Shown here piece after piece: positions 1,662-31,493 of a DNA stretch of 37,222 nt; the first letter of the stretch is position 1; every line of letters begins with the position of its first letter. Source of the DNA: Nocardioidaceae bacterium. Lineage in GTDB: Bacteria > Actinomycetota > Actinomycetes > Propionibacteriales > Nocardioidaceae. The DNA is taken from NCBI GenBank assembly GCA_013696015.1, contig JACCZI010000133.1:1-37222 (forward strand), given 5' to 3'. The notes beneath the pieces are model-generated. The model did not search any database. It was not told the origin of the DNA and was given only the letters and a program-made list of their open reading frames with translations. A program made the position numbers and the translations under genes.

Positions 1662-1662
1662 G

Positions 1663-2925: not shown

Positions 2926-2926
2926 G

Positions 2927-3409: not shown

Positions 3410-3418
3410 GGAGGACGG

Positions 3419-3907
3419 GTGGACGAAGCAGCGCCGCGGGGCCGCGTCATTACCGCCTCCAACCGAGCCGCCGCAGGTGTTTACGCCGACCGGGCGGGTC
3501 CGATGATCGTGGAACGCTTGCAGGAATGGGGTTTCGAGACACCTGAGCCGATCGTGGTGGCTGACGGTGCGCCGGTCGAGCAGGCGCTGAGAGACGCGGT
3601 GGCGGACCGCGTGGACGTGGTGATCACCACCGGCGGCACCGGCCTCAGCCCCACCGATGAGACACCGGAGCGCACCGCGGCCGTGCTGGACTACGAGGTG
3701 CCGGGAATCGCCGAGGCGATCCGTGCCGACGGTGTAGGCCGCGGGGTGCCGACCGCGATGCTGTCCCGTGGCCTGGCCGGCATCGCCCGGCAGACCGTGG
3801 TGGTGAACCTGCCGGGGTCACCAGGCGGCGTCACGGACGGTCTGGCGGTGCTCGAGGGTGTCCTGCGGCACGCCGTCGACCAGCTGCGCGGTGGTGATCA
3901 CCCCTGA
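3419..3907 (+). CDS. moaB: MoaB/MogA-family molybdenum cofactor biosynthesis protein
   Basis: 162 aa with VITASNRAAAGVYADRAGP and VITTGGTGLSPTDETPE, the MoCF_biosynth domain signature. Confidence 0.85.
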   Translation: MDEAAPRGRVITASNRAAAGVYADRAGPMIVERLQEWGFETPEPIVVADGAPVEQALRDAVADRVDVVITTGGTGLSPTDETPERTAAVLDYEVPGIAEAIRADGVGRGVPTAMLSRGLAGIARQTVVVNLPGSPGGVTDGLAVLEGVLRHAVDQLRGGDHP

Positions 3908-11914: not shown

Positions 11915-13178
<1,264 letters not shown>

Positions 13179-13230
13179 GACTCGCTGCCGTGCCCGGCGC
13201 CGGGTGAAGTGCACCGACTTCGACGCCACG

Positions 13231-14100
13231 ATGACGTCTGACGAGGTACGCCTGCTCGGCCCGGCGGAGGTCCGCTCCCTGGCGGCCCGGATCGGGCTGC
13301 GACCGGCCAAGTCGCGGGGCCAGAACTTCGTGATCGACGCCAACACGGTCCGGCGCATCGTGCGGGCCTCCGGTGTGAGCGGGGACGACGTCGTGATCGA
13401 GGTCGGACCTGGGCTCGGCTCTCTGACGCTCGCGCTCAGCGCGGTCGCCGGTCATGTCACCGCGATCGAGGTCGACCCGGTGCTGGCGGCGGCGCTGCCG
13501 GACACGCTCGCCGAGCGCGCGCCATCTCGCGCGGAGCGGGTCGACATCGTGCGTGCCGACGTCCTGCGCATGCCCGCAGTCCCCGGGCCGTCACCGACTG
13601 CGATGGTGGCCAACCTGCCGTACAACGTGGCCGTGCCGGTCCTGCTGCGCCTTCTCGAGATGCTGCCCAGCCTGGCGTTCGGCCTGGTCATGGTGCAGGC
13701 CGAGGTTGCGGATCGGCTGACCGCTGCACCGGGGTCCCGGACCTACGGCGGGCCGAGCGCCAAGGCAGCCTGGTTCGCCGACGTCCGCCCCGCGGGCCGG
13801 GTCAGCCGCACCGTGTTCTGGCCGGTGCCCAACGTCGACTCGGGCCTGGTGGTGTGGCGACGACGCGATCCACCGCCGGCGGCGGTGTCGCGCGCGGAGG
13901 TCTTCGCGGTCGTCGATGCCGCCTTTGGTCAGCGCCGCAAGACGCTCCGCTCCTCGCTAGGGACTCTCGCCGGCTCGCCGGCCGCCGCCGAGGAAGCGCT
14001 GACGGCCGCCGGAGTCTCTCCGCAGGCCCGTGGCGAGTCCCTCGACATTGCGGCGTTCGCCCGAATCGCTGACGCCTTCGCGCATAGGTTGAAGCCGTGA
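13231..14100 (+). CDS. rsmA: 16S rRNA (adenine1518/1519-N6)-dimethyltransferase RsmA/KsgA
   Basis: From ATG 13231: [40 protein letters not shown]. The upstream part of track ORF 12940.. overlaps rpfB out of frame. Confidence 0.9.
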
Positions 14101-15020
14101 GGGGTGTCACCGTGCGCGCGCCGGCCAAGATCAACCTTGCCCTGGCGGTTGGTGGCGTCAGCCCTGACGGCTATCACCCGGTCGCGACGATCTATCAGGC
14201 CGTGGATCTCTGCGACGAGGTACGCGCGACGCCGCAGGACTCGCCTGCCATCGACGTGACCGTGACGTACGACGGACGGAGCCCGAGCGAGACCGCACAG
14301 GTGCCGCTCCACGCCGACAACCTTGCGGTTCGCGCCGCCGCGCTGCTGCGAGAGCGGGCCGGCGTCAGCGGCGGAGTCAGCCTGGCGATCCGCAAGGCGA
14401 TCCCCGTCAGCGGTGGGATGGCGGGCGGCTCCGCCGACGGGGCTGCCGCGCTGGTCGCGTGCGACATGGTGTGGGAGCTCGCCACGCCGCGGCCAACATT
14501 GCTGCGACTGGCTGCCGAACTTGGCAGCGATGTGCCCTTCGCGCTGCTGGGCGGCACCGCCATGGGTACCGGCCGAGGGGAGCTCGTCAGCCCGGTGCTC
14601 GCCAGCGGCGCGTACTACTGGGTGCTCGCGCTGGCCGCAACGGGGCTCTCGACCCCCGCGGTGTACGCCGAGTACGACCGGCTGCACAGCGGCTTCGCGC
14701 CGCCGGCCCCGCAGGTTGCGCCGGCGCTGATGGCGGCACTGCGCGCCGGTGACACGGGCGCCCTCGGGGCGGCGATGAGCAACGACCTCCAGGACGCGGC
14801 CATCTCGTTGCGACCAGAGCTGGCGCACGTGCTGGCGATCGGTGAGGAGTGCGGGGCGCTAGGTGGACTGGTGTCCGGCTCCGGCCCCACCACCGTGTTC
14901 CTGGCGGTCGACGAGGAGCACGCACTGGACATTGCGCTGGCTCTCAACGGATCAGGGGCTTGTGCCGACGTGGTCCAGGCCCTCGGCCCGGTCGGTGGGG
15001 CCCGTCCCATCGGCGGCTGA
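14097..15020 (+). CDS. ispE: 4-(cytidine 5'-diphospho)-2-C-methyl-D-erythritol kinase
   Basis: [15 protein letters not shown] and the GHMP kinase motif [20 protein letters not shown]. The GTG overlaps the rsmA stop (GTGA). Confidence 0.9.
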
Positions 15021-15034
15021 CCCGGGGCCGGCAG

Positions 15035-15529
15035 TCAGTCGCGAGTCTCGAACGGCCGGACCAGCACTCGGAGCAGGCTGGCGAGCCGCGCGGCGTCTCC
15101 CGGGGGAAGCCCTGACAGCAACTCCCGTTCCCGAGCCAACAGGGCCTCGAGGGCAGCATCGACGGCGGCGCAGCCACGGGCGGTGAGCTGCACCTTGACA
15201 CCACGGCGGTCCTCGGGGTCCGGCAGCCGCTCCACCAGGTCCTTGGCAGCCAGCCGGTCGACGCGGTTCGTCATCGTGCCGCTGGTGACCAGAGTCTCGA
15301 GTAGCAGCCGGCCGGGGGAGAGCTGGTACGGCGGTCCCGAGCGGCGCAGCGCGGAGAGCACATCGAACTCCCAGGCCTCCAGACCGTGCTCCGTGAACGC
15401 CCTACGGCGCGCCCGGTCGAGGTGGCGGGCCAGTCGGGTGACCCGGCTGAGCACCTGCATCGGCAGCACGTCGAGGTCGGGGCGCTCCCTCTGCCACGCC
15501 TCGACCAACCGGTCGACCTCGTCGGTCAC
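15035..15529 (-). CDS. MarR family transcriptional regulator
   Basis: C-terminal 164 aa of track ORF 15035..16192, including EAWEFDVLSALRRSGPPYQLSPGRLLLETLVTSGTMTNRVDRLAAKDLVERLPDPEDRRGVKVQLT (winged HTH). The start is set at in-frame GTG 15529; the rest of the ORF is antisense to tam. Confidence 0.8.
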   Translation of the reverse strand: MTDEVDRLVEAWQRERPDLDVLPMQVLSRVTRLARHLDRARRRAFTEHGLEAWEFDVLSALRRSGPPYQLSPGRLLLETLVTSGTMTNRVDRLAAKDLVERLPDPEDRRGVKVQLTARGCAAVDAALEALLARERELLSGLPPGDAARLASLLRVLVRPFETRD

Positions 15530-15595
15530 ACCGCTCAGCGTAGCGTCGAGAGTCTTGACGTTGAGATTCTCGCTTGCAACCCTTCTCCGGTGCCC

Positions 15596-15631
15596 GTGCC
15601 CACGACTGTGCCCACGACTGTGCCCACGACG
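15596..15631 (+). repeat. 12-bp tandem repeat gtgcccacgact x3, preceded by a half unit at 15590-15595
   Basis: Read directly. It encodes VPTT repeats in the tam frame and lies 60-100 nt from the divergent marR start. Confidence 0.9.
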
Positions 15632-16396
15632 TGGGACCCCGCGACGTATCTGAGGTTCGCCGAGGAACGCTCCCGGCCCTTCGCCGAGCTGCTGGCGCGA
15701 GTCGATGTCGACGCTCGGACCGTTGTCGACCTCGGCTGTGGACCCGGCCACCTGACTGAGCAGATCCGAGCCCGCTGGCCACGGGCGCACATCCTCGGCC
15801 TCGATACGTCGACGCAGATGGTGGCGACGGCGCGAAAGGAGCATGCCCTGGCCGACGCTGACTACGAGGTGCGTGACCTTCGGGAGTGGTCGCCTGACGA
15901 GCCGGTCGACCTCGTGCTGTCCAACGCCACCCTTCAGTGGGTGCCTGGCCACCTCGAACTGTTGCCCGGCCTTGCCGACGCAGTCGCAGTGGGAGGGAGC
16001 ATCGCGTTCTCCGTGCCCGGAAACTTCGCCGAGCCGAGCCATGTGCTGCTTCGGGAGCTGGCGGACGAGCAGCCGTACGTCCGGTGGACGTGGGACATCG
16101 AGCGGCCCAGCGCGTACGACGCCGCCAGCTACCTCGATGTCCTCGGACGTCCGGGCTGGATCGTGGACGCCTGGGAGACGACCTACCTGCACGTGCTGTC
16201 GGGTTCCGACCCGGTGTTCGGGTGGTTGTCCGGCACCGGAGCTCGGCCGGTGCTGCAGGCGCTACCGGCTCGGGAGCGTCAGCGGTTCGAAACCGCGTTC
16301 AAGAGCCGGTTGCGTGCGGCCTACCCGAGCCGCGAGTACGGCACCGTGCTGCCGTTCCGCCGGGTTTTCGTGGTCGCCCGGCGCCAGGAGGGCTGA
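15620..16396 (+). CDS. tam: trans-aconitate 2-methyltransferase-like SAM methyltransferase
   Basis: WDPATYLRFAEERSRPFAELLARV (compare E. coli Tam: [24 protein letters not shown]), VVDLGCGPGHLT and SNATLQWVPGH. The start is ambiguous among GTGs at 15590, 15596, 15608 and 15620 within the repeat. Confidence 0.85.
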   Translation: MPTTWDPATYLRFAEERSRPFAELLARVDVDARTVVDLGCGPGHLTEQIRARWPRAHILGLDTSTQMVATARKEHALADADYEVRDLREWSPDEPVDLVLSNATLQWVPGHLELLPGLADAVAVGGSIAFSVPGNFAEPSHVLLRELADEQPYVRWTWDIERPSAYDAASYLDVLGRPGWIVDAWETTYLHVLSGSDPVFGWLSGTGARPVLQALPARERQRFETAFKSRLRAAYPSREYGTVLPFRRVFVVARRQEG

Positions 16397-16414
16397 GCCG
16401 TCCGACTTCATCAC

Positions 16415-16759
16415 GTGCAGGTGAGCTGCCCGGCCGGTGGCGAGGATGCCGCCCGCGCGTTCTACGGTGGCGTGCTCGGGCTGCCCGAGGTGGCAAAGCC
16501 GCCGGCACTCGCCGCGCGTGGCGGAGTGTGGTTCTGCCGCGAGGAGGTCGAGGTCCACGTCGGCGTGGAGGAGCCGTTCCGGCCGGCCGGCAAGGCGCAC
16601 CCAGCGTTCAGCGTGGACGACGTCGACGCGGTCGCGAAGGCGGCCACGGCTGCCGGGTTCCCCGTGGCGTGGGACGAAGACTTCCCCGGGTACCGGAGGT
16701 TCTACACCGCAGACGGAAACGGCAATCGGGTCGAGGTGCTCAGCCCGCTCGAGGGATGA
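16415..16759 (+). CDS. VOC (glyoxalase/bleomycin-resistance/dioxygenase) family protein
   Basis: 114 aa with DAARAFYGGVLGL, KAHPAFSVDDVDAV, RRFYTADGNGNRVEV, a single betaalphabetabetabeta-module pattern. Confidence 0.7.
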   Translation: MQVSCPAGGEDAARAFYGGVLGLPEVAKPPALAARGGVWFCREEVEVHVGVEEPFRPAGKAHPAFSVDDVDAVAKAATAAGFPVAWDEDFPGYRRFYTADGNGNRVEVLSPLEG

Positions 16760-17387
16760 GTGTGGGCTCCGGCTCCAGCCCCGACAGCCCGTTCCACGCC
16801 AAGTTGCACAGGTGGGCGGCGACGACCTCCTTAGCCGGCTCGCGGGCGTCGAGCCACCACTGCCCGGTGGTGCCGACCATGCCGACCAGCATCTGGGAGT
16901 ACATCGGCGCGTACGTCGCGTCGAAGCCGCGGGCGGCGAACTCGGCGCCCAGGATGTGCTCGACGCGGCTCGCTACGTCGCCGATGATGCTGACGAAGGA
17001 GCCGGACGCCGACCCGATGGGCGAGTCGCGGACCAGGATGCGGAACCCGTCGGAGCTGGTCTCGACGTAGTCCAGCAGCGCGCATGCCGCCTGCTCGAGC
17101 AGCTCTCGCGGGTGCCCGGCGGTCAGCGCGTGGCCCATCATGTCCAGCAGCCGACGCACCTCCCGGTCGACGACGACCGCGTAGAGGCCCTCCTTGCCGC
17201 CGAAATGCTCGTAGACGACCGGCTTGGACACCTCCGCCCGAGCGGCGATCTCCTCGACCGAGGTACCTTCCACGCCTCGCTCGGCGAAAGCGGCGCGGGC
17301 GATCTCGATGAGCTGCTCGCGACGCTCAGAGGCGGTCATGCGCGGGCGGCGCCCCCGTTCGTCTGCACCCTGCGACACGTCGGTCAT
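16740..17387 (-). CDS. TetR/AcrR family transcriptional regulator
   Basis: ERREQLIEIARAAFAERGVEGTSVEEIAARAEVSKPVVYEHFGGKEGLY (TetR_N HTH). Occupies the position of the mycobacterial Rv1019-like regulator. Confidence 0.9.
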   Translation of the reverse strand: MTDVSQGADERGRRPRMTASERREQLIEIARAAFAERGVEGTSVEEIAARAEVSKPVVYEHFGGKEGLYAVVVDREVRRLLDMMGHALTAGHPRELLEQAACALLDYVETSSDGFRILVRDSPIGSASGSFVSIIGDVASRVEHILGAEFAARGFDATYAPMYSQMLVGMVGTTGQWWLDAREPAKEVVAAHLCNLAWNGLSGLEPEPTLIPRAG

Positions 17388-17613
17388 TGTGCCCTACGGG
17401 GTCTCAACGGCGCCCGGCGTCGACGCCGCTGCTGTGATGCACCATGCTGCGCACCAGCCAAGTCCGGACCTGAGGTGACCCGAAATGTACGCCGGATGAT
17501 AACCAGACCGCCACTCGGAGTTCTTCGACGCGGTTCCCCATCTTGCTGCGACTCTTCTGGTCCGAGACGGGCGGGCACAAGGCCGGTCGATCGCAGAGCA
17601 AAGGTGTCATTCT

Positions 17614-18459
17614 ATGTCTCAGAGCACTTCTCGGGACCAGCCGATTCCGTCGGGTGGACGCGACATCTCAACCCACCTCGGGCTTCTCGGTGTCCCGTCA
17701 TTTCAGCCTCGGACTGTCCCCTTCGACCCTGGCTACGATCCTCAGACCGTCGTCTCGCACCTGGCGCAGAGCGGCCACCTCATGGCCGGTCTCAAGCTAT
17801 CGATGACGTGCTGGCTGATCGCCGATTTTCGGGCCACCCAAGCCAAGATCGACGCGGCGAAGTCACAACACATTCCCCTTATCGCAGGTGGCGCAGCGTT
17901 CGAGATTGCCGTGCAACAAGGGATGCTCATCTCCTATCTGGAGTTGTGCGGGGCGCTGGGCATCGACTGCATTGAGGCGGGAGAGGGCTTTACCGATCTC
18001 GGCGTGACCGCCGCGGAGACGGTTAGCCTGGCTCACGAACGCGGCCAGGATGTGCAGTTCGAGCTCGGACGTAAACATGAGGGGCCGTTCACCCGCCGAC
18101 GCGTCATGGAACTCATTCAGCAAGGCAGGGAGTGGCTCGGAGCGGGCGCTGTCCGCCTCGTGGTCGAGGCCCGAGAGAGTGCAGCGGGCGTGGGCCTCTT
18201 CGACGCCGAGGGAGAACTGCGGAGGGAGCTGACGGACCTGCTCGTGGAGGGTATTAGCCTTGAACTGCTCTGCTTCGAGGCGCCCTCCAAGGCGAGCCAG
18301 TTCGCCCTGCTGAAGCACCTGGGGCCTGACGTACTGCTGTCGAACGTACGCCTCGAAGAGCTTCTCAGGGTCGAGATCTTCCGGCGCGGGATGCACGCGG
18401 ACTCCTACGGGGATCCACGGTTGGGCACGTGGGCACCGGTGTCGGGGTACGAGCTGTAG
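17614..18459 (+). CDS. comA: (2R)-phospho-3-sulfolactate synthase (ComA family)
   Basis: Alignable by eye to my recollection of M. jannaschii ComA. LVVEARESAAGVGLFDAEGELRRELTDLL...LLCFEAPSKASQFALLKHLGPDVLLSNVRLEELLRVEIFRRGMHADSYG compares with IIEGRESGKGKGLFDKEGKVKENELDVL...[48 protein letters not shown]. Confidence 0.85.
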   Translation: MSQSTSRDQPIPSGGRDISTHLGLLGVPSFQPRTVPFDPGYDPQTVVSHLAQSGHLMAGLKLSMTCWLIADFRATQAKIDAAKSQHIPLIAGGAAFEIAVQQGMLISYLELCGALGIDCIEAGEGFTDLGVTAAETVSLAHERGQDVQFELGRKHEGPFTRRRVMELIQQGREWLGAGAVRLVVEARESAAGVGLFDAEGELRRELTDLLVEGISLELLCFEAPSKASQFALLKHLGPDVLLSNVRLEELLRVEIFRRGMHADSYGDPRLGTWAPVSGYEL

Positions 18460-18470
18460 CCTTCACTGGC

Positions 18471-19208
18471 ATGACGGATCGGCCACGCATCGTCCGGATC
18501 GACAGCACCCCGTCCGCTGCCGCCCGCTACGGGCCCGGTTGGGCGGTTGTCGGCGTTGACGTCTTCCGGGCTACGACACTGCTGTGCACTGCGTCGGAGA
18601 AGGGTCGGCGTTGCCTGGTGGCAGCCGACGTGGCGGAGGGGACCGCTTTGGCGGCTCACATTCCAAAGGCTCTGCTGGGCGGCGAGCAGCAAGGACTGGT
18701 TCCGCCGGGATTCGACGTCGGCAACAGCCCGGCGGAGTTTGCCCACAGGAGCGACCTCGAGCGACCCCTTGTGCTCGTCACCTCGTCCGGAACCCCGCTT
18801 CTCCGCCGGGCAGCGTCGGCGAGCGTCGTGTACGCCGCCTGCCTCCGAAACGTGACGGCGACGACCGAGCAGCTGATTGCACTCGAAGTCGACGTCGCGG
18901 TCATCGGGGCCGGCACTCGAGGAGAACGCCGCAAGGAGGATGACTTCGGGTGTGCGCAGATCGCCGCAGGCCTGCTGGCGGCAGGCTTTGACGCAGACAC
19001 GGACACCCGAGCGCTTGTCCAACGCTGCATGCGTCTGTCCACCGAGTGGTGTGCCTCCGGAAGTTCTGCGAAGTTCCTGCGGCACGTGGGTCGGCAAGAC
19101 GACATCGACTTCGTGCTGTCACACGTCGACGACGTCGACTCGTTCCTGGAGGTCAGCGGAACTGAGGTGCTCCATCATGACAGGAGTTGGGCTGCCCATG
19201 CGCACTGA
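18471..19208 (+). CDS. comB: 2-phosphosulfolactate phosphatase (ComB family)
   Basis: VVGVDVFRATT and LLGGEQQGLVPPGFDVGNSPAEF match the ComB signature (D-V-L/F-R-A-T-T; GGE..G....GFD.GNSP). ATG 18471 lies 11 nt after the comA stop. Confidence 0.8.
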   Translation: MTDRPRIVRIDSTPSAAARYGPGWAVVGVDVFRATTLLCTASEKGRRCLVAADVAEGTALAAHIPKALLGGEQQGLVPPGFDVGNSPAEFAHRSDLERPLVLVTSSGTPLLRRAASASVVYAACLRNVTATTEQLIALEVDVAVIGAGTRGERRKEDDFGCAQIAAGLLAAGFDADTDTRALVQRCMRLSTEWCASGSSAKFLRHVGRQDDIDFVLSHVDDVDSFLEVSGTEVLHHDRSWAAHAH

Positions 19209-21435
19209 CCTTTCGGTCGTTGTCCTCAAGCTGCGGCCCTATGCGCTGCACGCCGGCACGATTGGAATCGCCCGCAGTGTGGGGCGTCTAGGCGTCGACG
19301 TGCACGTGCTGGGTGATCGGAAATCTGCTGCGGTTGCGCGCTCTCGCTATGTGCGGTCGGTGACCGAGTTGCCCTCACCCAAGGGGTCACCCGAGCAGCT
19401 CGCACAGTGGATCCGGCAGCAGGCGCCGGCGGGTCGTCCGCTCCTCGTGCCCGTCGACGACCTCGGCGCGACATTCGTCCAGCAGCACGCGGACACCTTG
19501 CACGAGGCGTACCGATTTGCGAGGCTGCCCGCCGGGCTCGCAGCGGGGCTGGTGGATAAAGCGACCCTGGCCGACCTCGCACAGTCGGCCGAGGTGCCGT
19601 CGCCAACGCACCTGGTGCCTACAACTCTCGAGCATGTGGACGACTTTCTTGTCGACGCCACGTTTCCGGTCGTCGTGAAGATGCGCAATCCAGACCTCTT
19701 CGACGCGGCGCGAGGTGTCCGGAGTGTCGAGATCGCCGACGATGCCGCCACGGTTCGGGAGCTGTGCCTGCGGCACATGGTTGATGGCAGTCCGAACTGC
19801 CTCCTGCAGGAATACATCCCGGGCGGGCCCGAAACCGTCTGGATGGTGAACGCGTACGTCGACGCCACCTCAGAGCTACGCTTCGCCGCTAGTGGGCGCA
19901 AACTGCGACAGCGTCCCCCCTATATCGGGGCAACGTCACTCGGCATTTGCGAGCGGAATGTCGCGGTCATGGAACAGACTGCACGGTTGGTGCGACACAT
20001 CGGCTATCGAGGGATCCTCGACATCGGATGGCGCTTCGACGCCCGCGACGGCCGCTACAAGCTCCTGGACTTCAACCCCCGCATCGGTGCGACGTTCCGC
20101 CTGTTCGTCGGTCGTTCTGGAATGGACGTCCTGCGTGCTTGCTACCTACACATGAGCGCGCAGGCCCTGGCCGTGGATCAGGTGCCCGACGGCCGCACCT
20201 GGATCAACGAGCTGAACGACCTGTCCTCGGTCGGCACGTACCTGCGAGAGCGTGACCTGACCCGGCGTGAGTACCTCCGCTCACTTCGAGGCGTCGGGGA
20301 GCCGGTTTGGCTCGCTCGCGACGACCTGGCTCCAGCGCTATCCATTCTGTGGATGGCGGGTCGCAGGGCTCTGCGGTCGCCGGGGCAGCCGAGTGGGAGC
20401 GCCGCGGCCGCGGTTGACGGCGAGCCGGCACGAGCTAGTGGGTGCCGACGCAGGGAGCGGCGCGCGGATGCGATGAGGCTGCCCAACCTGCTGATCATCG
20501 GCGTCAGCAAAGCTGGCACCACCTCCCTGTTCACCTACCTGAGCCAGCACCCCGAGGTCTGCCCGGGAGCGGTCAAGGAGGTGCGGTACTTCAACCCGCT
20601 CAGGCAGGGGGAGCCGCTGGAGCCGGTGGACACCTACGCCGCCAACTTCGTCGGGTGCGAGGAGGTCAGGTACGCGGTCGAGGCCACCCCGAGCTACTTC
20701 TGGGGGGGTCAGGTGATGGCTGCGGGCATTGACGAGGTTCTCGGGCCGGATGTGCGGATCGTCCTCTGTCTGCGCAATCCGGTGGAGCGGTGCTGGTCGT
20801 GGTACCGGTTCAGCAGGAGCCGCACCAGGGTGCCCAAGTCGATGACGTTCGAGGAGTACCTGGACCGCAGCGAGGAGCTGTGGCTGTCAGGGGCGGTACC
20901 GTCGATCGAGAAGCAGCCTTACTGGGGACTGGGCGGCGGTTGCTACGACGACTTTCTCGACCCGTGGGTGTCTCGATACGGCGACCGGTTGCAGGTGATC
21001 TTCTTTGACGATTTGGTAGCCGACGCGCATGGCACCCTCCGGACGGTGTGTGAGTGGCTGGGGCTGGACCCGGCACCGCTGGCCCAGGTTAACTATCGCG
21101 CGGAAAACCGCACCGAGAACGTCTACCGCTTCCGTTGGCTGCGCCAACATGCGATGGCGACGAACCGACGTAGCGAGCGGTTCTTTCGTCAGCATTGGCG
21201 GCTGAAGCGGTTCCTGCGACGGACCTACTACGCGGTCGACCGGTCGCGCCGAGACGAGCTCATGACCCCAGAGGCCCTGGCGCGGATGGTCGAATTCTAC
21301 CGGCCACACCTGCAACGCCTGGACGCCCAGCTGATCCGGCTCGGCCTGCAGTTGCCGGAGGCTTGGCGCAACCCCAGCACAGCGCCGAACGTACCGCCAC
21401 GGGTGACTGCGACAAGGTTGTCCCGGGGGTCTTGA
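19177..21435 (+). CDS. fusion protein: N-terminal ATP-grasp carboxylate ligase (COG3919-like) plus C-terminal PAPS-type sulfotransferase
   Basis: The N-terminal half resembles ATP-grasp enzymes (VVVLKLRPYALHAGTIGIARSVGRLGVDVHV ... FPVVVKMRNP ... LLQEYIPGGPETVWMVNAYV ... GILDIGWRFDARDGRYKLLDFNPRIG). A low-complexity linker follows. The C-terminal domain has a 5'-PSB loop (LLIIGVSKAGTTSL) and a 3'-PB motif (LCLRNPVERCWSWY). There is no stop between the two domains. Start is ATG 19177 or 19198, overlapping the comB 3' end. Confidence 0.75.
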   Translation: MTGVGLPMRTDLSVVVLKLRPYALHAGTIGIARSVGRLGVDVHVLGDRKSAAVARSRYVRSVTELPSPKGSPEQLAQWIRQQAPAGRPLLVPVDDLGATFVQQHADTLHEAYRFARLPAGLAAGLVDKATLADLAQSAEVPSPTHLVPTTLEHVDDFLVDATFPVVVKMRNPDLFDAARGVRSVEIADDAATVRELCLRHMVDGSPNCLLQEYIPGGPETVWMVNAYVDATSELRFAASGRKLRQRPPYIGATSLGICERNVAVMEQTARLVRHIGYRGILDIGWRFDARDGRYKLLDFNPRIGATFRLFVGRSGMDVLRACYLHMSAQALAVDQVPDGRTWINELNDLSSVGTYLRERDLTRREYLRSLRGVGEPVWLARDDLAPALSILWMAGRRALRSPGQPSGSAAAAVDGEPARASGCRRRERRADAMRLPNLLIIGVSKAGTTSLFTYLSQHPEVCPGAVKEVRYFNPLRQGEPLEPVDTYAANFVGCEEVRYAVEATPSYFWGGQVMAAGIDEVLGPDVRIVLCLRNPVERCWSWYRFSRSRTRVPKSMTFEEYLDRSEELWLSGAVPSIEKQPYWGLGGGCYDDFLDPWVSRYGDRLQVIFFDDLVADAHGTLRTVCEWLGLDPAPLAQVNYRAENRTENVYRFRWLRQHAMATNRRSERFFRQHWRLKRFLRRTYYAVDRSRRDELMTPEALARMVEFYRPHLQRLDAQLIRLGLQLPEAWRNPSTAPNVPPRVTATRLSRGS

Positions 21436-21497
21436 CGTCCGAGCTTTTGTCGAGCGCCGGTGGTGACGGAACGATTGTGCGATCGCGTCGAAGGAGG

Positions 21498-22259
21498 CTA
21501 GCGACGAGCCAATACGATGTAGTGGCTGCCGAGGCGGGACAACCACGGGTCTCTCGTTTCCGCGAGGCGGCTTAGCGCGGCATCGATGCGCAGCGCGACC
21601 GACTCTGGACCGACCGGACGGGCCAAGAAGGTCGGCGGCCCGAACCCGACACTCGTGGTCCTCAGCACCTGCAGACCGGCCGACTCGACGGTCGCCCGAG
21701 CCGCTCGAGGACTCACGAGGCGGTTCCCTCCACCTTTTCGGCCCAAGATGGTGCCCACCTTGCGTCGTAGCGGTTGCGCAACCGGTGTGAGTTTGGGGTC
21801 AAGCCACCGGAAGAGCCGGAAGGAGTTGTCGAAGCTGACCAGGACCCAACCACCCATGCGGGTCACTCGAGCCAGCTCGGCCATCACCGACGGCATCGAG
21901 CGGGCCCAGGGGAGAAGGCCAAGCGCAACCACCAGGTGGAAGGCGCCGCTGGCAAAGGGGAGGTGGTGGGCGTCGGCGCGGATGACCGCCTCGTTGAGTG
22001 CTGCCGCGTCTATGCGATCTCGGGTCATTCGGGTCATCTCATTGCTGACGTCCGAGGCAACGACCTGGGCGCCGCGCCGTGCTAGCGCAAGGGTCAGATC
22101 CCCGGCGCCGCACCCGACATCTAAGGCAGCGAACGCAGGGGAAGCTCTATGTCGTCGATTAAGCGCACGCTCGTGGACAGCCGCCGGCGATAGATCTCCG
22201 CGTCCAGGCCGGTCGAACCGTAGATGTCCTGCCAATAACTGGCGCGGCTTGTGAACCAT
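21498..22259 (-). CDS. class I SAM-dependent methyltransferase (Methyltransf_11-like); the 5' end is probably disrupted by a frameshift and the gene likely begins at 22324 in another frame
   Basis: ALDVGCGAGDLTLALARRGAQVVASDVSNEM (motif I and the post-I acidic residue) and FASGAFHLVVALGLL. See the frameshift finding. Confidence 0.7.
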   Translation of the reverse strand: MVHKPRQLLAGHLRFDRPGRGDLSPAAVHERALNRRHRASPAFAALDVGCGAGDLTLALARRGAQVVASDVSNEMTRMTRDRIDAAALNEAVIRADAHHLPFASGAFHLVVALGLLPWARSMPSVMAELARVTRMGGWVLVSFDNSFRLFRWLDPKLTPVAQPLRRKVGTILGRKGGGNRLVSPRAARATVESAGLQVLRTTSVGFGPPTFLARPVGPESVALRIDAALSRLAETRDPWLSRLGSHYIVLARR

Positions 22260-22362
22260 GCCGGACCGGCCGATTTTCCGGTGGTATCGGTCGACGTGCG
22301 CTGGTTCTCACTCGGGTCAGTCATCTCTTTCCCATTCCCACCGCGGTCGCTGCGCGTGGGAG

Positions 22363-23352
22363 TCAGCGAGCAGGACCGCTCGGCATCCGTTTGCCGGCCA
22401 GGCGGTCGGGCACCGGCCACCGGACGTCGCTGACCCAGCCCAGCTTCTCCAGTGCCCAGATGACGCGGGCGGAGGTGTCGAGCTGGCCTCGCATGACACC
22501 GTGCCTGGCACAGGTCGGGTCGGCATGGTGCAGGTTGTGCCATGACTCGCCCATTGACGGGATTGCCAACCACCACACATTTCCGGACCGGTCCCGGCTG
22601 CGGAAGGGCTGTTGGCCGACGGCGTGACAGATGGAGTTGATGGCCCAGGTCACGTGGTGCAGCAACGCCACCCGTACCAGAGAGCCCCAGAAGAACGCGG
22701 TCAGCGCGCCATACCACGACATCGACCACAGCCCTCCGACGACCGGTGGCAGCAGCAGCGACACCGCCGCCAGCAATGGAAACGCGCGCGAGACGCGGAC
22801 GATGTCGCGGTCCTTGAGCAGGTCCGGCGCGTACTGGCGCTGCGGGGTCTGCTCGGCGTCGAACAGCCAGCCGATGTGCGCGAACGCCAGCCCCTTCATC
22901 AACGCCGGGATCGACTCGCCGTAGCGCCACGGCGAGTGCGGGTCGCCGTCGCGGTCCGAAAACTTGTGGTGCTTGCGGTGGTCAGCGACCCAACGGATCA
23001 CAGGACCCTGAATGGCCAGGCTGCCGGCGACCGCGAGCGCGACGCGGACGCCGCGGTTGGGCTTGAACGACTTGTGCGTGAAGAGCCGGTGAAAGCCGAC
23101 CGTGATGCCGTGGCCGCTGAGCGCGTACATCGCGAACGCGATGACCACGTCGTGCCACCCGAGCCAGCCGCCCCATGCGATCGGCACTGCCGCCACCAGC
23201 GCCAGGAACGGCACCACGATCAGCAGGGTGAGCGTGATCCGTTCCGCACGACTCTGCACCAAGCCGCCGAGCGTTCCCCCCTCGTCGTCGTACTCCTGGC
23301 CGCGGGGTGCGCCTGCCACGGGGGTCTGGGCGTCAAGGGTGGGAGCGGTCAT
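22363..23352 (-). CDS. membrane acyl-CoA/acyl-lipid fatty-acid desaturase (DesA3/stearoyl-CoA desaturase-like)
   Basis: Three His boxes are present: HRLFTH, HRKHHKFSD and HNLHHAD. TM segments are visible. Start is set at ATG 23352, preceded by GAAAGGA; the track ORF extension to 23688 was rejected. Confidence 0.9.
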   Translation of the reverse strand: MTAPTLDAQTPVAGAPRGQEYDDEGGTLGGLVQSRAERITLTLLIVVPFLALVAAVPIAWGGWLGWHDVVIAFAMYALSGHGITVGFHRLFTHKSFKPNRGVRVALAVAGSLAIQGPVIRWVADHRKHHKFSDRDGDPHSPWRYGESIPALMKGLAFAHIGWLFDAEQTPQRQYAPDLLKDRDIVRVSRAFPLLAAVSLLLPPVVGGLWSMSWYGALTAFFWGSLVRVALLHHVTWAINSICHAVGQQPFRSRDRSGNVWWLAIPSMGESWHNLHHADPTCARHGVMRGQLDTSARVIWALEKLGWVSDVRWPVPDRLAGKRMPSGPAR

Positions 23353-23432
23353 CGGCGGTCCTTTCGGACGGTGGGCGCCGGGGCCGGCACCTACGCCACC
23401 GTAACCTACGGTGCCGTAGCCGTGCCACGCAC

Positions 23433-23464
23433 ACCAACCCCTCTCACCATCCGAGACTTCTGAC
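23433..23464 (-). repeat. copy C of the dispersed repeat (minus-strand reading GTCAGAAGTCTCGGATGGTGAGAGGGGTTGGT)
   Basis: Read directly as the reverse complement of 23433-23464. Confidence 0.7.
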
Positions 23465-23500
23465 GCGGAGGTCTCTTGCTCCGAGGCGTATGCCACGAAC

Positions 23501-23530
23501 CACCCCTTCCCACGATCCGAGACTTCTGAC
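23501..23530 (-). repeat. copy B of the dispersed repeat (minus-strand reading GTCAGAAGTCTCGGATCGTGGGAAGGGGTG)
   Basis: Read directly as the reverse complement of 23501-23530. Inverted relative to copy D. Confidence 0.7.
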
Positions 23531-23553
23531 CGGGGCCTTTTGGCGCCCGAGGC

Positions 23554-23584
23554 GTCATAGGTCTCGGATCGTCGCGGGGTTGTG
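23554..23584 (+). repeat. copy D of the dispersed repeat (GTCATAGGTCTCGGATCGTCGCGGGGTTGTG)
   Basis: Read directly. Pairs with copy B to form a long imperfect hairpin at 23512-23572. Confidence 0.7.
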
Positions 23585-23654
23585 CACCGGCGGCGGTTGC
23601 TGCACGGGCGGGATCGTCCACCGGGGGGCGTGTCGCCGTACGCTGATCTCGCAA

Positions 23655-23733
23655 TCCCCGGTTGGTCTGTCGGCAGGGCCCGCCGCACTTTGAATGCGGA
23701 CTAGCGACGTAGGTTCGACTCCTACCCGGGGAG
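23655..23733 (+). tRNA. tRNA-Gln (anticodon TTG)-like gene with non-canonical dimensions
   Basis: Manual fold. The acceptor is a perfect 7 bp (TCCCCGG/CCGGGGA). The anticodon arm is CCGCA-CTTTGAA-TGCGG (U33, UUG, A37) and the T arm is GTAGG-TTCGACT-CCTAC. However, there are 2 nt between the D and anticodon stems and a 9-nt variable loop (ACTAGCGAC), giving 79 nt in total. It lies 45 nt upstream of glmU, where I recall actinobacteria carry tRNA-Gln. Confidence 0.55.
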
Positions 23734-27872: not shown

Positions 27873-29294
27873 GTGAGTAATATTACTTTGAGTAGTCCTG
27901 CCGTTTCTTTCGGTAATCGACGCGCGCTCGCAACGACGCGTACCTCGACCGCGGCCCCGCCAGGCGATGCGCTGTCGGTCTACCTCGAGTACGTGGGCGC
28001 TGTGCTGTTCGGGCTCACAGCGGCCGTCGCGCTCCCCGGGCAGGGTGTCGTGCCGCTTGCCGTCACCGGCGGCGTGGCGCTCGCGTTCCTCCTCGAGCTG
28101 GTCACGCTGCCCGTCTACGACCGCACCCGATCCAGGCGTCCCTTGGGACGGATGGCTGTTATGGCCGGAGCTGCGCTACTGGTCGGGACCGCCATCGGCT
28201 GGCTGAACACGATGGACGTCCGCGGCGGGCTGATCGTGCTGACCACCAGCCTCGCGGTTCCGCTCGGAGCGAGGGTTCAGTACCCAGGCCGTCATGCCCC
28301 CCGCACCGCGTTGCTCATCGGCGACAGGATCGCCGTCTCCCACCTGATCACCCAGTGGAACGCGCTGCCCCACATCCGAATGGTCGGGGTCTGCCTGGTG
28401 GAAACCGATGACGACGCCGGCGACCAGCCGCGCCAGATCCAGGGCATCCCGGTCGTCGGCTCGTTGCCGAACGTGCCGGGTGTGGCCCACGACCTGGGCG
28501 TCGACCAGGTGGTCGTAGCTCCAGGGCCGGTCCTCACCGCGTACGACGTCCGGCGCTTGAGCTGGGCGCTCGAGGACTCCGCGATCGAGCTGACCGTCGC
28601 CACCGAGGTCCACGGAGCGGTCCCGGGACGCATCGAACCGCGCCTGCTCGGTCGACGGTTGCTGCTGTCGGTGCGGCCGACCCGCCGGCCAGCGCTGCTG
28701 GTGTGGCTGAAGTCGTGCTTCGACCGTCTGAGCGCACTCCTGCTGCTCGTTGTGACTGCGCCGCTCATCGCGGTCCTGGTGGTACTGGTGCGGCGCGACA
28801 CTCCCGGGCCAGGATTCTTCCGCCAGACCCGGGTCGGCCATCACGGTCGGTTGTTCACGATGTACAAGCTGCGGACGATGCGGACCAACGCCGAGCAGCT
28901 GCGTTCGGAGCTCGACCGCTACAACGAGGGAGCCGGCCCGCTGTTCAAGATGGCGTCCGACCCACGCATCACACGCGTCGGCCGCGTGCTGCGCCGGTGC
29001 TCCCTCGACGAGCTGCCGCAGCTGATCAATGTGGTCAAGGGCGACATGTCGCTGATCGGCCCTCGGCCGGCGCTGCCGTCGGAGCTGATCGAGTACGACC
29101 ACTGGATTCGTCGTCGGCTGAGCGTCAAACCCGGCATCACCGGGCTCTGGCAGGTGAGCGGGCGGTCACGACTGGCGTGGAACGACGCGGTGCGGCTCGA
29201 CCTGGACTACGTCGACAACTGGACGATGGGCGGCGACGTCGGGATCGCGGCGCGCACCGTCGGCGCGGTGCTGCGACGTGACGGCGCGGCCTGA
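27873..29294 (+). CDS. polyprenyl-phosphate glycosyl-1-phosphate transferase (bacterial sugar transferase, WbaP/EpsB-like priming enzyme)
   Basis: 473 aa. N-terminal TM segments followed by a C-terminal Bac_transf domain (PGFFRQTRVGHHGRLFTMYKLRTM ... DELPQLINVVKGDMSLIGPRP ... PGITGLWQVSGRS). Confidence 0.85.
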   Translation: MSNITLSSPAVSFGNRRALATTRTSTAAPPGDALSVYLEYVGAVLFGLTAAVALPGQGVVPLAVTGGVALAFLLELVTLPVYDRTRSRRPLGRMAVMAGAALLVGTAIGWLNTMDVRGGLIVLTTSLAVPLGARVQYPGRHAPRTALLIGDRIAVSHLITQWNALPHIRMVGVCLVETDDDAGDQPRQIQGIPVVGSLPNVPGVAHDLGVDQVVVAPGPVLTAYDVRRLSWALEDSAIELTVATEVHGAVPGRIEPRLLGRRLLLSVRPTRRPALLVWLKSCFDRLSALLLLVVTAPLIAVLVVLVRRDTPGPGFFRQTRVGHHGRLFTMYKLRTMRTNAEQLRSELDRYNEGAGPLFKMASDPRITRVGRVLRRCSLDELPQLINVVKGDMSLIGPRPALPSELIEYDHWIRRRLSVKPGITGLWQVSGRSRLAWNDAVRLDLDYVDNWTMGGDVGIAARTVGAVLRRDGAA

Positions 29295-29488
29295 CCCGGG
29301 CAGGTCCACGGCAGACAATTCTCGCCATTTGTAGTCAGTCAGTGACCCAAAGTGACAGAATGTCTCTGGTGGTGGGTGGCGGCCGGTTGACGCCGTGCCT
29401 CCCACGCCGCAGCATGTGCACCTACCTGCCGGCGATCCCAGCGAGCTGAGGAACATGGTCGTGCGGCGTGACGCAAGGGGACCACTCG

Positions 29489-30559
29489 ATGACCGTGCAA
29501 CTGCACCGCAGCCGCCGTGTCGGTGGTGCGCTGGCCGCGCTGGCCCTCGCCGCGGCCCTGATCCCCAGCGGCACGTCGGTCGCTCAGAGCGTGGCCCCGA
29601 GGGTGGCCCCGAGCCGCGCCGACATTGACAGTTCGACGCTCGCGTGCGGGGTGAACCGGCGGCTCGTGCCCTCCTGCGGCGTGTCGTGGGGCGTCTACAC
29701 CAAACAACGGACGGCCGCTGAGGGCTGGGCCACGCCGTTCGTGCAGATCGAGCGGGCGATCGGCCGCAGGTTCGACCTGGTGAAGCGCTACCACGACTGG
29801 TCCAACTCGGGCGGCAACGGGCAGTTCCCCGACCAGTACGAGCGGCAGCTGGGAGCCACCGGGCAACGCACCTTGTACTTCGCGTGGACGTCAAACATCT
29901 GGTCCACGGGCTCCTTTGCGCACTGGCGCGACATCGCCAACGGCGAGTACGACTCATCGGTGATCTTGCCTGCGGCGAAGCGGTTGAAGGCCTGGGGCAA
30001 GCCGGTCTTCATCGACTTCGACCACGAGATGGACGGTCGGACCCGGACCGCCAACGGCACCCCCGCCGACTATGTGGCGGCGTACCGCCACATCCAGGAC
30101 GTGATGGCGAACGCCGGTGTCACCAATGTGGTGTGGGCGTGGGTGCCGACGGGCACGATGGCCAACGTCGGCCGCATCAAGGCCATGTACCCCGGTGACG
30201 CCTACGTCGACTGGGTCGGTTACGACCCGTACAACTTCTTCCGGTGCAACGGTTCGCCCTGGGAGGATCCCTACCGGTCCCTGGCGCCGTTCTACGGCTG
30301 GCTGCAGGACAACGGCATGGCCGACAAGCCGATACTGCTCGGCGAGTACGGCTCCGTGCCGGACCCGGACAACGTCGGGCGTATCAAGGATTGGTACGGC
30401 GGCGTCCCGGCTGCCCTGAAGCGGCTGCCTCACATCAAGGCGGTCATCCAGTGGAACTCCCAGACCTCGACGATCTGCGACTTCCGGGTCACCGGGAGCC
30501 CAGCGGCGCTGAGCGGCTTCCGGAGCGCTGCCAACGCCCCTTACGTCACCGGCGGCTGA
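29489..30559 (+). CDS. secreted glycoside hydrolase, GH26-like
   Basis: From ATG 29489: signal-peptide-like RSRRVGGALAALALAAALIPSGTSVAQS. FIDFDHEMDG, WAWVP, WVGYDPYN and LLGEYGS resemble GH26 acid/base and nucleophile regions. The family assignment is by eye only. Confidence 0.55.
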   Translation: MTVQLHRSRRVGGALAALALAAALIPSGTSVAQSVAPRVAPSRADIDSSTLACGVNRRLVPSCGVSWGVYTKQRTAAEGWATPFVQIERAIGRRFDLVKRYHDWSNSGGNGQFPDQYERQLGATGQRTLYFAWTSNIWSTGSFAHWRDIANGEYDSSVILPAAKRLKAWGKPVFIDFDHEMDGRTRTANGTPADYVAAYRHIQDVMANAGVTNVVWAWVPTGTMANVGRIKAMYPGDAYVDWVGYDPYNFFRCNGSPWEDPYRSLAPFYGWLQDNGMADKPILLGEYGSVPDPDNVGRIKDWYGGVPAALKRLPHIKAVIQWNSQTSTICDFRVTGSPAALSGFRSAANAPYVTGG

Positions 30560-30563
30560 GCCC

Positions 30564-31493
30564 TCAGGCCGGATAGCCGTAGTGGCGTCGGAGCGGCCAC
30601 GTCACCGCGGCGACGAGCCGCCGCCGCGAGGGGGGTAGGGCGCTGCGCCACGCGTCGTCGGTGCGGACGCGGACATTCCCAGTGGTGAACCGCAGGGGGT
30701 TGCCGGCGACGGTGTGATTGCGGTGCAGCGGGAGCTCGTGCTCAGGCCCGGGCGGAACCGTGTCACCCGGCAGGTCCAGGTACGACGTGATCCGTCGCAG
30801 CGTGGCCCGCGGCCCTGCGGCGAAGTCCTCGTAGCGGACGAGCAGTCGGGGAGTGCCACGGGCGGCGACGGCCTCGAACATGCTGTTGTGCGCCAGCCAA
30901 GTGCCGGCCACCTGGGGAGCCGAGTACTGCGGCATGTACTGCACTCGGTCCGAAATTTCGGGACGGCGGACCTGCTTGCCCCACGAGTACGCGACGCCTG
31001 GACTGTCACGGACGACGTGGACGAGGCGCAGGTCGACGTCCGGGTTCCACCGCAGGCAGGCGGCCAGCGACACGTGCTTGCTGGAGTCCAGCACCACCGT
31101 GGCGCCTGTCATCGCGGCCGCCGCCCGGTAGATCGCGACGTAGAGGTCGGTGTAGCGGCGTACCGCGTGCTGCCGCGAGGAGGGCAGTCGGGTGCGAAGC
31201 AGCAGGGGCACGAAGCGGTTGCGGTCGACCGCCGCCTTGAGCGCAAGCACCTCCGCGACGTCCACCTCGGACCAGCCGCCGAAGGCCCGGTCACCGATGT
31301 CCCGCCAGAATTGGCAGTCGTGGAACGGCTGACCGCAGCCACAACGCTGGTTGTCGCGCAACCCCCGCTCCCACAGGTGGACGAGCTCCCCGAGCGCGCA
31401 CAGGCCGCGCAGGCTGCCGAGTGTGAGCTCCAAGAGCGTCGAACCGCTGCGGCCGAAGCCGCCGATGTAGCCGACGCTGACAGGCGCTGTCAC
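30564..31493 (-). CDS. sulfotransferase family protein
   Basis: From GTG 31493, which overlaps the upstream stop (GTGA): YIGGFGRSGSTLLE (P-loop-like 5'-PSB), VVLDSSKH, LVHVVRDSPGVAYSW (3'-PB-like). 309 aa. Confidence 0.7.
   Translation of the reverse strand: MTAPVSVGYIGGFGRSGSTLLELTLGSLRGLCALGELVHLWERGLRDNQRCGCGQPFHDCQFWRDIGDRAFGGWSEVDVAEVLALKAAVDRNRFVPLLLRTRLPSSRQHAVRRYTDLYVAIYRAAAAMTGATVVLDSSKHVSLAACLRWNPDVDLRLVHVVRDSPGVAYSWGKQVRRPEISDRVQYMPQYSAPQVAGTWLAHNSMFEAVAARGTPRLLVRYEDFAAGPRATLRRITSYLDLPGDTVPPGPEHELPLHRNHTVAGNPLRFTTGNVRVRTDDAWRSALPPSRRRLVAAVTWPLRRHYGYPA

Follow-up and report, generated by a model that had tools for sequence, protein, structure and literature searches.

The synthesis of sulfolactate is known to open the route to coenzyme M (CoM), of which phosphosulfolactate synthase (ComA) and 2-phosphosulfolactate phosphatase (ComB) are the first two enzymes in archaea, and to supply a spore metabolite. 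Bacillus subtilis has the ComA and ComB pair (yitC/yitD, ComB and ComA homologues, respectively) without the later CoM enzymes, so that spore sulfolactate itself is the output; this pair is not known to have an ATP-grasp or methyltransferase partner, and its sulfolactate stays free. Here I describe a stretch of 37,222 nucleotides from a Nocardioidaceae bacterium (contig JACCZI010000133.1 of assembly GCA_013696015.1; "the window" denotes the whole of it), in which homologues of the same pair lie next to genes for an ATP-grasp ligase, a sulfotransferase and a class I S-adenosylmethionine (SAM) methyltransferase. Across many phyla, the ComA/ComB pair occurs together with members of a large and unstudied family of such ATP-grasp ligases, a link that would give sulfolactate synthesis a new downstream branch.

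The locus resembles the described systems in part. With the archaeal CoM pathway it shares the homologous pair and the expected product, (2R)-3-sulfolactate; the window ComA matches the M. jannaschii enzyme (MJ0255, PDB entry 1QWG) at 2.4e-29, aligned over the whole barrel, and its charged core is kept. It differs from that pathway in that an ATP-grasp ligase and a methyltransferase, instead of ComC and ComDE, stand downstream, in that its hosts are mostly non-methanogenic soil bacteria, and in that the scores fall below the equivalog cut-offs. The Bacillus enzyme (1U83) is matched at 3.5e-17, more weakly than the archaeal one. A third system, the misaugamycin cassette misNOPQ, carries genes for an acyl carrier protein (ACP) and an acyl-CoA ligase as well as for a phosphosulfolactate synthase and for a glyoxalase, and is the proposed source of a 2-sulfoacetyl acyl tail (PMC9136965). 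There, an actinomycete ComA homologue feeds an amide-linked sulfonated acyl group, which makes this cassette the nearest precedent for a sulfonated acyl donor; however, an acyl-CoA ligase together with an ACP, not an ATP-grasp, activates the acyl group, ComB is missing, and a C2 sulfoacetyl group is placed on a non-ribosomal peptide (PMC9136965). A full-text literature search found neither a description of the ComA-ComB-ATP-grasp-methyltransferase set nor a mention of sulfolactyl conjugates; the misaugamycin cassette was the only related item, and a paper on SAR11 that mentions ComA proved to have no bearing on the locus. An earlier note on this DNA, made from the sequence alone, likewise knew of no characterised pathway with its combination of ComA, ComB, ATP-grasp and sulfotransferase. 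All four enzyme families are known, and it is their combination, its breadth over phyla and its placement in polysaccharide operons that appear to be undescribed.

A conserved unit of ComA, ComB, ligase and methyltransferase

The gene comA (17614..18459, + strand) matches the phosphosulfolactate synthase profile PF02679 at 1.2e-39 (136.6 bits against a cut-off of 25.2, with 231 of the 243 profile positions covered), whereas its 143.4 bits against the equivalog model TIGR03849 do not reach the cut-off of 280. The window ComA shares with that enzyme of M. jannaschii the residues K137, E103, E133, E168, R170, E171, E205, K209, Q212 and N227, which are also kept in 53-55 of the 55 ComAs from comparable loci; a catalytic role of K137 is reported in the structure paper. 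Among these 55 proteins, 69 columns are at least 95 % conserved, 38 of which are identical in M. jannaschii ComA, and R240/R241 are also among the columns common to both. The subfamily has, besides those of the archaeal enzyme, invariant positions of its own, and because of these and the score below the equivalog cut-off, it is only probable that this separate subfamily of the ComA family converts phosphoenolpyruvate (PEP) and sulfite to phosphosulfolactate. Eleven nucleotides downstream of the comA stop codon follows comB (18471..19208, + strand), whose product matches the 2-phosphosulfolactate phosphatase profile PF04029 at 6e-36 (124.1 bits, cut-off 26.4) and PDB entry 1VR0 at 3e-16, and which stays below the cut-off of every NCBIfam equivalog model. 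The start at ATG 18471 agrees with the gene call (245 amino acids) in contig L001, a near-identical sequence discussed below; a GTG at 18429 is the alternative.

The third gene (19177..20472, + strand) encodes a predicted ATP-grasp carboxylate ligase of the COG3919 or "D-aspartate ligase"-like family. Its true start is ATG 19177 or 19198, and the start of the open reading frame (ORF) at 18877 was rejected as a spurious upstream extension. No curated family in Pfam or NCBIfam matches this protein above cut-off: CPSase_L_D2 reaches 17.1 bits against a gathering cut-off of 19.8, and relatives match ATPgrasp_Ter, RimK and ATP-grasp_5 weakly. However, an AlphaFold (AF2) model of good quality (predicted local distance difference test 89.4, predicted template modelling score 0.88) supports a three-domain ATP-grasp fold. 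With this model, Foldseek returned 522 PDB matches at E<=0.001, of which the 50 best listed are all ATP-grasp enzymes; on top stand the L-amino-acid ligase 3VOT (9e-16), biotin carboxylases, PurK and RizA. Moreover, K161, Q204 and the D291-x-N293-x-R295 motif are invariant across 20 homologues. The likeness to ATP-grasp amide ligases such as BL00235 (3VOT), RizA (4WD3) and D-aspartate ligase thus extends to the fold and the nucleotide- and Mg-binding motifs, and because of this match acyl-phosphate chemistry is to be expected of the window enzyme. It differs from them in sequence, as identities to solved structures are 10-17 %, with the best structural match at 15 % and a template modelling (TM) score of about 0.6. 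A profile search of the PDB gave weak and generic matches, the best sequence match being 1.6e-6 over about 90 residues, so that neither sequence nor structure comparison with the PDB revealed close similarity to a characterised D-aspartate or L-amino-acid ligase.

At E<=1e-30, this large ligase family comprises 1732 clusters of 50 % identity, and many members are labelled "D-aspartate ligase" by JGI or annotated as "carboxylate-amine ligase". The 120 best listed homologues are either stand-alone proteins of about 400-470 amino acids or fusions of about 650-730 amino acids with a methyltransferase, apart from two longer ones (880 and 914 amino acids) that contain ATP-grasp only.

A gene for a carbohydrate-like sulfotransferase of the 3'-phosphoadenosine 5'-phosphosulfate (PAPS) type follows (20473..21435, + strand), which has its own ATG and forms the C-terminal third of a long ORF that also holds the ligase. 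It matches Sulfotransfer_1 (PF00685) at 2.9e-13 (50.2 bits, cut-off 22) and has both PAPS-binding motifs, the 5'-phosphosulfate-binding IIGVSKAGTTS and the 3'-phosphate-binding LRNPVERCWS. The similarity to carbohydrate sulfotransferases extends to the bacterial 3RNL (3.9e-14) and the heparan sulfate enzymes NDST and 3-OST (4e-10 to 1e-8); the window enzyme differs in being a stand-alone bacterial protein attached to a sulfolactate module. The last gene, on the opposite strand and convergent with the others, lies 62 nt from the sulfotransferase stop and encodes a class I SAM methyltransferase (21498..22259, - strand; Methyltransf_11, 7.7e-20), for which the PDB gave uncharacterised or generic class I matches only.

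The spacing of the genes supports one tightly coupled + strand operon of comA, comB, ligase and sulfotransferase. Besides the 11-nt gap between comA and comB, the latter overlaps the ligase gene by 11-32 nt, depending on the ligase ATG, and a terminator scan found no terminator-like site inside the operon. Three terminator-like matches were found, all outside the operon and at chance level, and a promoter scan gave no match. Several points of the earlier note are thereby borne out, as the profile searches agree with its assignment of ComA, ComB and a sulfotransferase, and the short gaps and overlaps with its proposal of a single transcription unit; for its ATP-grasp assignment the Pfam profile stayed below threshold, whereas the structure model and its matches upheld the fold.

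In order to see how far this arrangement extends, I scanned the Genome Taxonomy Database (GTDB), with one genome per species, for the ligase profile, which gave 591 confirmed relatives; the counts below are from the best 80 loci, all of them in metagenome-assembled genomes (MAGs), and partners were scored by tblastn with the window proteins within 8 kb of the ligase. ComA and/or ComB occur in 60 of the 80 loci, across about ten phyla, and a homologue of the methyltransferase (30-51 % identity) in 45. Many ligase family members are fusions of about 700 amino acids with such a methyltransferase, the core genes usually abut or overlap on one strand, and in a neighbour-joining tree of the ligases the linkage to ComA and ComB is the majority state, and the linked ligases occupy most of the branches. 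In the window, all four core genes are adjacent (17614-22259). The closest relative of the window ligase in the genome collection is 59 % identical; loci L092 and L093, with ligases of 60-65 % identity, have the window layout minus the sulfotransferase, that is comA-comB-ligase with a convergent methyltransferase. Taken together, these comparisons make it very probable that the conserved unit consists of ComA, ComB, ATP-grasp ligase and SAM methyltransferase, the last of which was missing from the gene list of the earlier note.

The 80 loci belong to Actinomycetota (Solirubrobacterales, Gaiellaceae and others), Acidobacteriota (Terriglobia), Chloroflexota and Gemmatimonadales (Gemmatimonadota), and further ones to Ignavibacteria, Bacteroidota, Dormibacterota, Verrucomicrobia, Planctomycetota, Bathyarchaeota and one MAG of the Methanomicrobiales. 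Spread over about ten phyla, archaea included, the module is no actinobacterial peculiarity. The co-occurrence of comA, comB and ATP-grasp gene recurs, but the sulfotransferase, the remaining gene of the set in the earlier note, went undetected by tblastn in all 80 loci, its sole match being the near-identical contig L001. In locus L094, also among those with the closest ligase relatives, comA-comB-ligase is followed by two unknown genes and then by genes for a PIG-L deacetylase and a sulfotransferase, so that the sulfotransferase lies four genes downstream of the ligase. The window sulfotransferase is best read as a lineage-specific accessory, inserted between ligase and methyltransferase, and its counterparts are found in other surroundings: the nearest homologues (50-56 % identical) directly follow genes for a glycosyltransferase of family GT4 and a polysaccharide deacetylase, in actinobacterial loci of the sulfated exopolysaccharide (EPS) type with multiple sulfotransferases, Wzx, Wzy and Bac_transf. 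This adjacency to a polysaccharide deacetylase echoes the deacetylase/N-sulfotransferase logic of NDST.

The ligase-sulfotransferase join

In the window, ORF 18877-21435 reads from ligase into sulfotransferase in frame, with no stop codon in between, from which the earlier note deduced a fusion enzyme. However, the top database match of the long ORF, P0001, is a protein of 432 amino acids that is 99 % identical and covers the ligase half only. The 4774-nt contig L001 is 99.7 % identical to window positions 17036-21811 in a blastn alignment that shows 12 mismatches and two single-base gaps, and its gene calls are comA, comB, a 432-residue ligase and a 320-residue sulfotransferase, hence four separate genes, with the ligase stop and the sulfotransferase start overlapping by four bases (ATGA). 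One of the gaps lies at 20378..20384 (+ strand), where the window has GCCGGGG and L001 has GCT-GGG, an extra G at about 20381 that shifts the non-conserved ligase tail into the sulfotransferase frame. In the frame of L001 the ligase ends in WMR followed by a TGA that overlaps the sulfotransferase ATG, and in this unfused frame the window ligase would end at TGA 20474-20476.

The ligase tail in the L001 frame, LTASRHELAG, resembles AARKHEVL and AARQQEVV in homologues of 60-65 % identity; as the tails of these more distant proteins agree with it, the unfused frame is taken to be the ancestral one. Among the 120 best ligase and the 120 best sulfotransferase homologues listed, no fusion of the two is present, and every sulfotransferase homologue in the list stands alone, with a length of 292-335 amino acids. 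Likewise, a search of 5.8 billion protein clusters gave no protein of fused length with this sequence among the listed matches, and in the ligase-family fusions examined a sulfotransferase is never the partner. The second indel between L001 and the window, at 21459 in the intergenic region after the sulfotransferase, also lies in a run of G, which makes a homopolymer error in one of the assemblies plausible. The join that was noticed earlier is therefore present in the window as a reading frame, but it is not conserved and hangs on a single-base indel; with high probability, it stems from a frameshift of very recent date or from an error in sequencing the homopolymer and does not represent a conserved bifunctional enzyme. 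Where a high-GC genome seems to encode a remarkable "fusion enzyme", some caution is called for, as the join may hang on one homopolymer base.

Neighbourhoods, proposed function and rival explanations

The surroundings of the module in other genomes point to extracellular polysaccharides. In seven Terriglobia loci it lies inside one Wzx/Wzy operon, in the order NusG-like antiterminator, UDP-glucose dehydrogenase, UXS-like epimerase, Bac_transf priming transferase, methyltransferase, ComA, ComB, ligase (with a second methyltransferase), Wzx-like membrane protein, GT4, APH-like kinase, Wzy and polysaccharide deacetylase. Genes that abut the module are GT4s, a GNAT and a flippase in Gaiellaceae, UDP-glucose dehydrogenase, epimerase and GT4 in Chloroflexota, and a GFO oxidoreductase, GT4, GT2 and GT4 in Bathyarchaeota, and in another actinobacterial MAG a flippase gene overlaps comA. 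A labelled glycan gene was found in 32 of 62 loci with ComA or ComB, at most 1.5 kb from the module in 18 of them, numbers that are indicative and come with no background control.

Several enzymes that handle amines accompany the ligase. Polysacc_deac_1 is present in 14 loci, in one of which (L058, about 1520-3595) a single ORF holds it together with the ligase, and the PIG-L deacetylase of L094 shares a locus with the ligase; an apparent fusion of methyltransferase and deacetylase in L067 was rejected, being two genes in different frames. Within the ligase family, P0242 and P0279 are fused to an Acetyltransf_6 GNAT, P0351 and P0358 to a flavoenzyme resembling Lys/Orn N-monooxygenases, and a second ATP-grasp is a further fusion partner. 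That deacetylases, GNATs and N-monooxygenase-like enzymes all handle amines supports an amine as the acceptor for the ligase. On the side of the acid, a homologue of LarA-type 2-hydroxy-acid racemases (Lar_N, 1.3e-38) occurs in ten loci (L022, L026, L030, L035, L053, L060, L069, L071, L076 and L080), nine of which have ComA and/or ComB. Its company with the module fits a 2-hydroxy-acid intermediate such as sulfolactate, and the homologue could be a sulfolactate racemase.

In what is mostly a single nested ligase clade, ComA and ComB are replaced by a gene of the ornithine-cyclodeaminase/mu-crystallin family (OCD; loci L024, L031, L036, L038, L040, L041, L048-L050, L070 and L073, beside the ligase at about 8001), which lies upstream of the ligase in all of them but L070. 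Loci L031, with OCD and two ligases, and L034, with methyltransferase-ComA-ComB and two ligases, are otherwise parallel Terriglobia polysaccharide operons, and this difference suggests that the sub-module supplying the acid or the amine is exchangeable.

From homology and gene context, the following sequence of reactions may be proposed. ComA, by family homology and its conserved catalytic core, would add sulfite to PEP to give 2-phospho-3-sulfolactate, from which ComB, by homology, would strip the phosphate to leave 3-sulfolactate. The ATP-grasp ligase would then activate a carboxylate as acyl phosphate, most simply the only one that sulfolactate has, and pass the acyl moiety on to an amine, in all likelihood that of a de-N-acetylated amino sugar in a nucleotide-linked or undecaprenyl-linked cytoplasmic polysaccharide precursor, as the gene context would have it. 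The capsule amidoligase of Campylobacter is a precedent for an ATP-grasp enzyme that modifies a polysaccharide precursor. The methyltransferase may methylate the adduct, for instance at the 2-hydroxyl, or the sugar, and in the lineage of the window only, the extra sulfotransferase may sulfate the same glycan. Of the product imagined in the earlier note, a sulfonated and sulfated small molecule or glycan substituent, the context makes the glycan decoration more likely than the free small molecule.

As a whole, the reading that an acquired four-gene module ligates sulfolactate to a glycan amine and methylates it, with sulfation added here and the fusion an indel, is put forward tentatively, at slightly less than an even chance. 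Sulfolactate as the acyl donor to a glycan amine is in itself possible but doubtful, and the general proposal, that the module in some ten phyla of mostly soil bacteria and in Bathyarchaeota installs an (O-methyl)sulfolactyl amide, made from PEP and sulfite, on extracellular polysaccharides and so may be a direct microbial source of soil organosulfonate, is somewhat unlikely. Several observations weigh against this reading. Both the acid and the amine substrates of the ligase family are derived from gene context alone; recognisable glycan genes are present in only about half of the loci; fusions to N-hydroxylating monooxygenase-like enzymes would rather be expected in small-molecule pathways, for instance those for siderophores; and in the window itself a desaturase gene and four housekeeping genes (glmU, prs, rplY and pth) separate the module from the EPS locus. 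Furthermore, as the ComA and ComB homologues do not reach the equivalog cut-offs of NCBIfam, they may use another nucleophile or substrate, and the 2-hydroxyl of sulfolactate could itself serve as nucleophile, giving an ester as in VanA-type ligases.

A compact four-gene core that moves between very different neighbourhoods, about half of which have no labelled glycan gene, could also make a soluble sulfolactyl conjugate, such as an amino acid or polyamine with an N-sulfolactyl group, an osmolyte, a cofactor or a compound of the siderophore kind, with the proximity to glycan genes being incidental. The family fusions to Lys/Orn N-monooxygenase-like flavoenzymes or a second ATP-grasp, and the fact that the closest structures are L-amino-acid ligases making free dipeptides, would suit such a product. 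I nevertheless consider it unlikely, as the Terriglobia module stands between a priming sugar transferase and a flippase in a single EPS operon, the core is not accompanied by any conserved exporter or transporter, and polysaccharide and PIG-L deacetylases recur, once fused to the ligase. Less probable again is a genuinely bifunctional ATP-grasp::sulfotransferase that couples sulfolactate ligation to O-sulfation in an actinobacterium-specific sulfonated and sulfated small molecule. The uninterrupted ORF, in which both domains are intact, and the sulfotransferase in the ligase operon of L094 would allow for it, and a recent gene fusion could still work; yet the separate, ATGA-overlapping genes in L001, with a difference of one G-run base, the unfused state of both sets of 120 listed homologues, the missing fused-length protein among the matches listed from the cluster search and the lack of a detectable sulfotransferase in the 80 ligase loci all argue against it.

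Modification of peptidoglycan and synthesis of CoM are two further explanations, and neither agrees well with the data. The ligase might attach sulfolactate or a derived acid to the peptidoglycan stem peptide in the manner of the Enterococcus D-aspartate ligase, for which speak the JGI annotation of many family members, the FemAB-like Acetyltransf_6 GNAT domains fused or adjacent in several of them, and the S8 peptidases that flank Solirubrobacterales modules. However, Bathyarchaeota and the Methanomicrobiales MAG, which lack peptidoglycan, have the module as well, no mur or fem genes were found next to it in the window, and the similarity to solved ATP-grasps is generic at the TM score and identity given above, all of which makes this improbable. 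A route to CoM (archaeal ComABCDE or bacterial XcbB-E), or to free sulfolactate as with Bacillus yitCD, with the ligase as an unrelated gene, appears very improbable indeed. It has in its favour that the pair forms the first two steps of the archaeal route, that ComA homologues also start the bacterial one (PMC9457059), and that alkene metabolism involves CoM in some actinobacteria (PMC8727900). Nonetheless, the scanned window ORFs with coding signature contain no match to ComC, ComD or ComE (sulfopyruvate decarboxylase, Ldh_2-type), as the earlier note had stated, and the scanned window ORFs gave no Pfam match to an aspartase-fold or pyridoxal-phosphate enzyme, the Xcb functions not having been searched directly. 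The linkage of the ligase to ComA and ComB in 60 of the 80 loci and to the methyltransferase in 45 is also incompatible with an unrelated neighbour. Moreover, the bacterial CoM route is not known to include a ComB step, and most host lineages (Acidobacteriota, Solirubrobacterales and Chloroflexota) are not known users of CoM, both of which count against this explanation.

If ligation of sulfolactate to a glycan amine is what the module does, it would represent a new class of sulfonate (C-S) decoration of glycans, distinct from sulfate esters and sulfoquinovose, would give a function to a large family now labelled "carboxylate-amine ligase" or "D-aspartate ligase", and would be a biosynthetic source for part of the carbon-bonded sulfur pool of soils. 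An analogy, and an analogy only, exists with the decoration of surface glycans by phosphonates through PEP mutase, as there too a PEP-derived acid with a carbon-heteroatom bond is placed on surface glycans; the chemistry (C-P versus C-S), the enzymes and the route of activation are different. In this regard, locus L090 contains, at 12538-14419 and within a Marmoricola-like sulfated-EPS locus, genes for a 2-hydroxy-acid dehydrogenase and then a PEP mutase, a pair that suggests a phosphonate counterpart of the sulfonate decoration proposed here.

Genomic setting of the module in the window

The window is part of a high-GC chromosome of actinobacterial type (GC 0.65-0.73), with the core gene order metG, tatD, rpfB-like, ksgA, ispE ... 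glmU, prs, rplY, pth. Between ispE and glmU, inside this conserved housekeeping stretch, lies an island of lower GC at about 17400-22300 that comprises exactly comA, comB, ligase, sulfotransferase and the convergent methyltransferase. Its GC is 0.65-0.67 as against 0.70-0.73 in the flanks, and its GC at third codon positions (GC3) is 0.72-0.79 as against 0.81-0.94 in neighbouring genes; such an island within a housekeeping stretch suggests that the module was acquired horizontally.

At 27.8-37.2 kb, some 6 kb downstream of the module, the window contains a Wzx/Wzy-type sulfated polysaccharide locus. A Pfam scan found a Bac_transf priming transferase (27873-29294, + strand), a GH26 (29468-30559, + strand), two sulfotransferases on the - strand (30564-31814 and 32704-33600, the second 31 % identical to the sulfotransferase of the module), a flippase-like gene (33597-35339, - strand) and Wzy_C (35162-36463, - strand). 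The organism therefore probably makes a sulfated exopolysaccharide, as far as its gene content can tell. Between the two sulfotransferases of this locus, two long ORFs overlap on opposite strands (31490-32713, -, and 31526-32764, +), neither with a Pfam match.

On the other side of the module, a gene for a TetR-family regulator (16740..17387, - strand; TetR_N, 3.4e-16) is divergent from comA over an intergenic region of 226 nt. It matches an NCBIfam FasR-like model at 6.8e-29, which is below the cut-off of that model, and its GC3 of 0.91 reflects host-like codon usage, versus 0.72-0.79 in the genes of the module. It is a possible local regulator of the module; a search for a TetR operator palindrome in the intergenic region 17380-17620 found none. 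Directly upstream of the regulator gene, a 363-residue SAM methyltransferase and a glyoxalase-family gene occupy positions 15305-16759, and the misaugamycin cassette likewise pairs a glyoxalase with its ComA homologue. No such ORF cluster was detected as a recurrent neighbour of the module in the other loci, and given this and the host-like GC3, the presence of the pair next to the module in the window is probably a coincidence.

A fatty-acid desaturase ORF (22363-23688, - strand) has, if an upstream GTG start is real, an N-terminal region of about 170 residues without a Pfam match, which precedes the FA_desaturase domain. The desaturase adjoins a FasR-like TetR regulator, a pairing that recalls mycobacterial lipid regulation.

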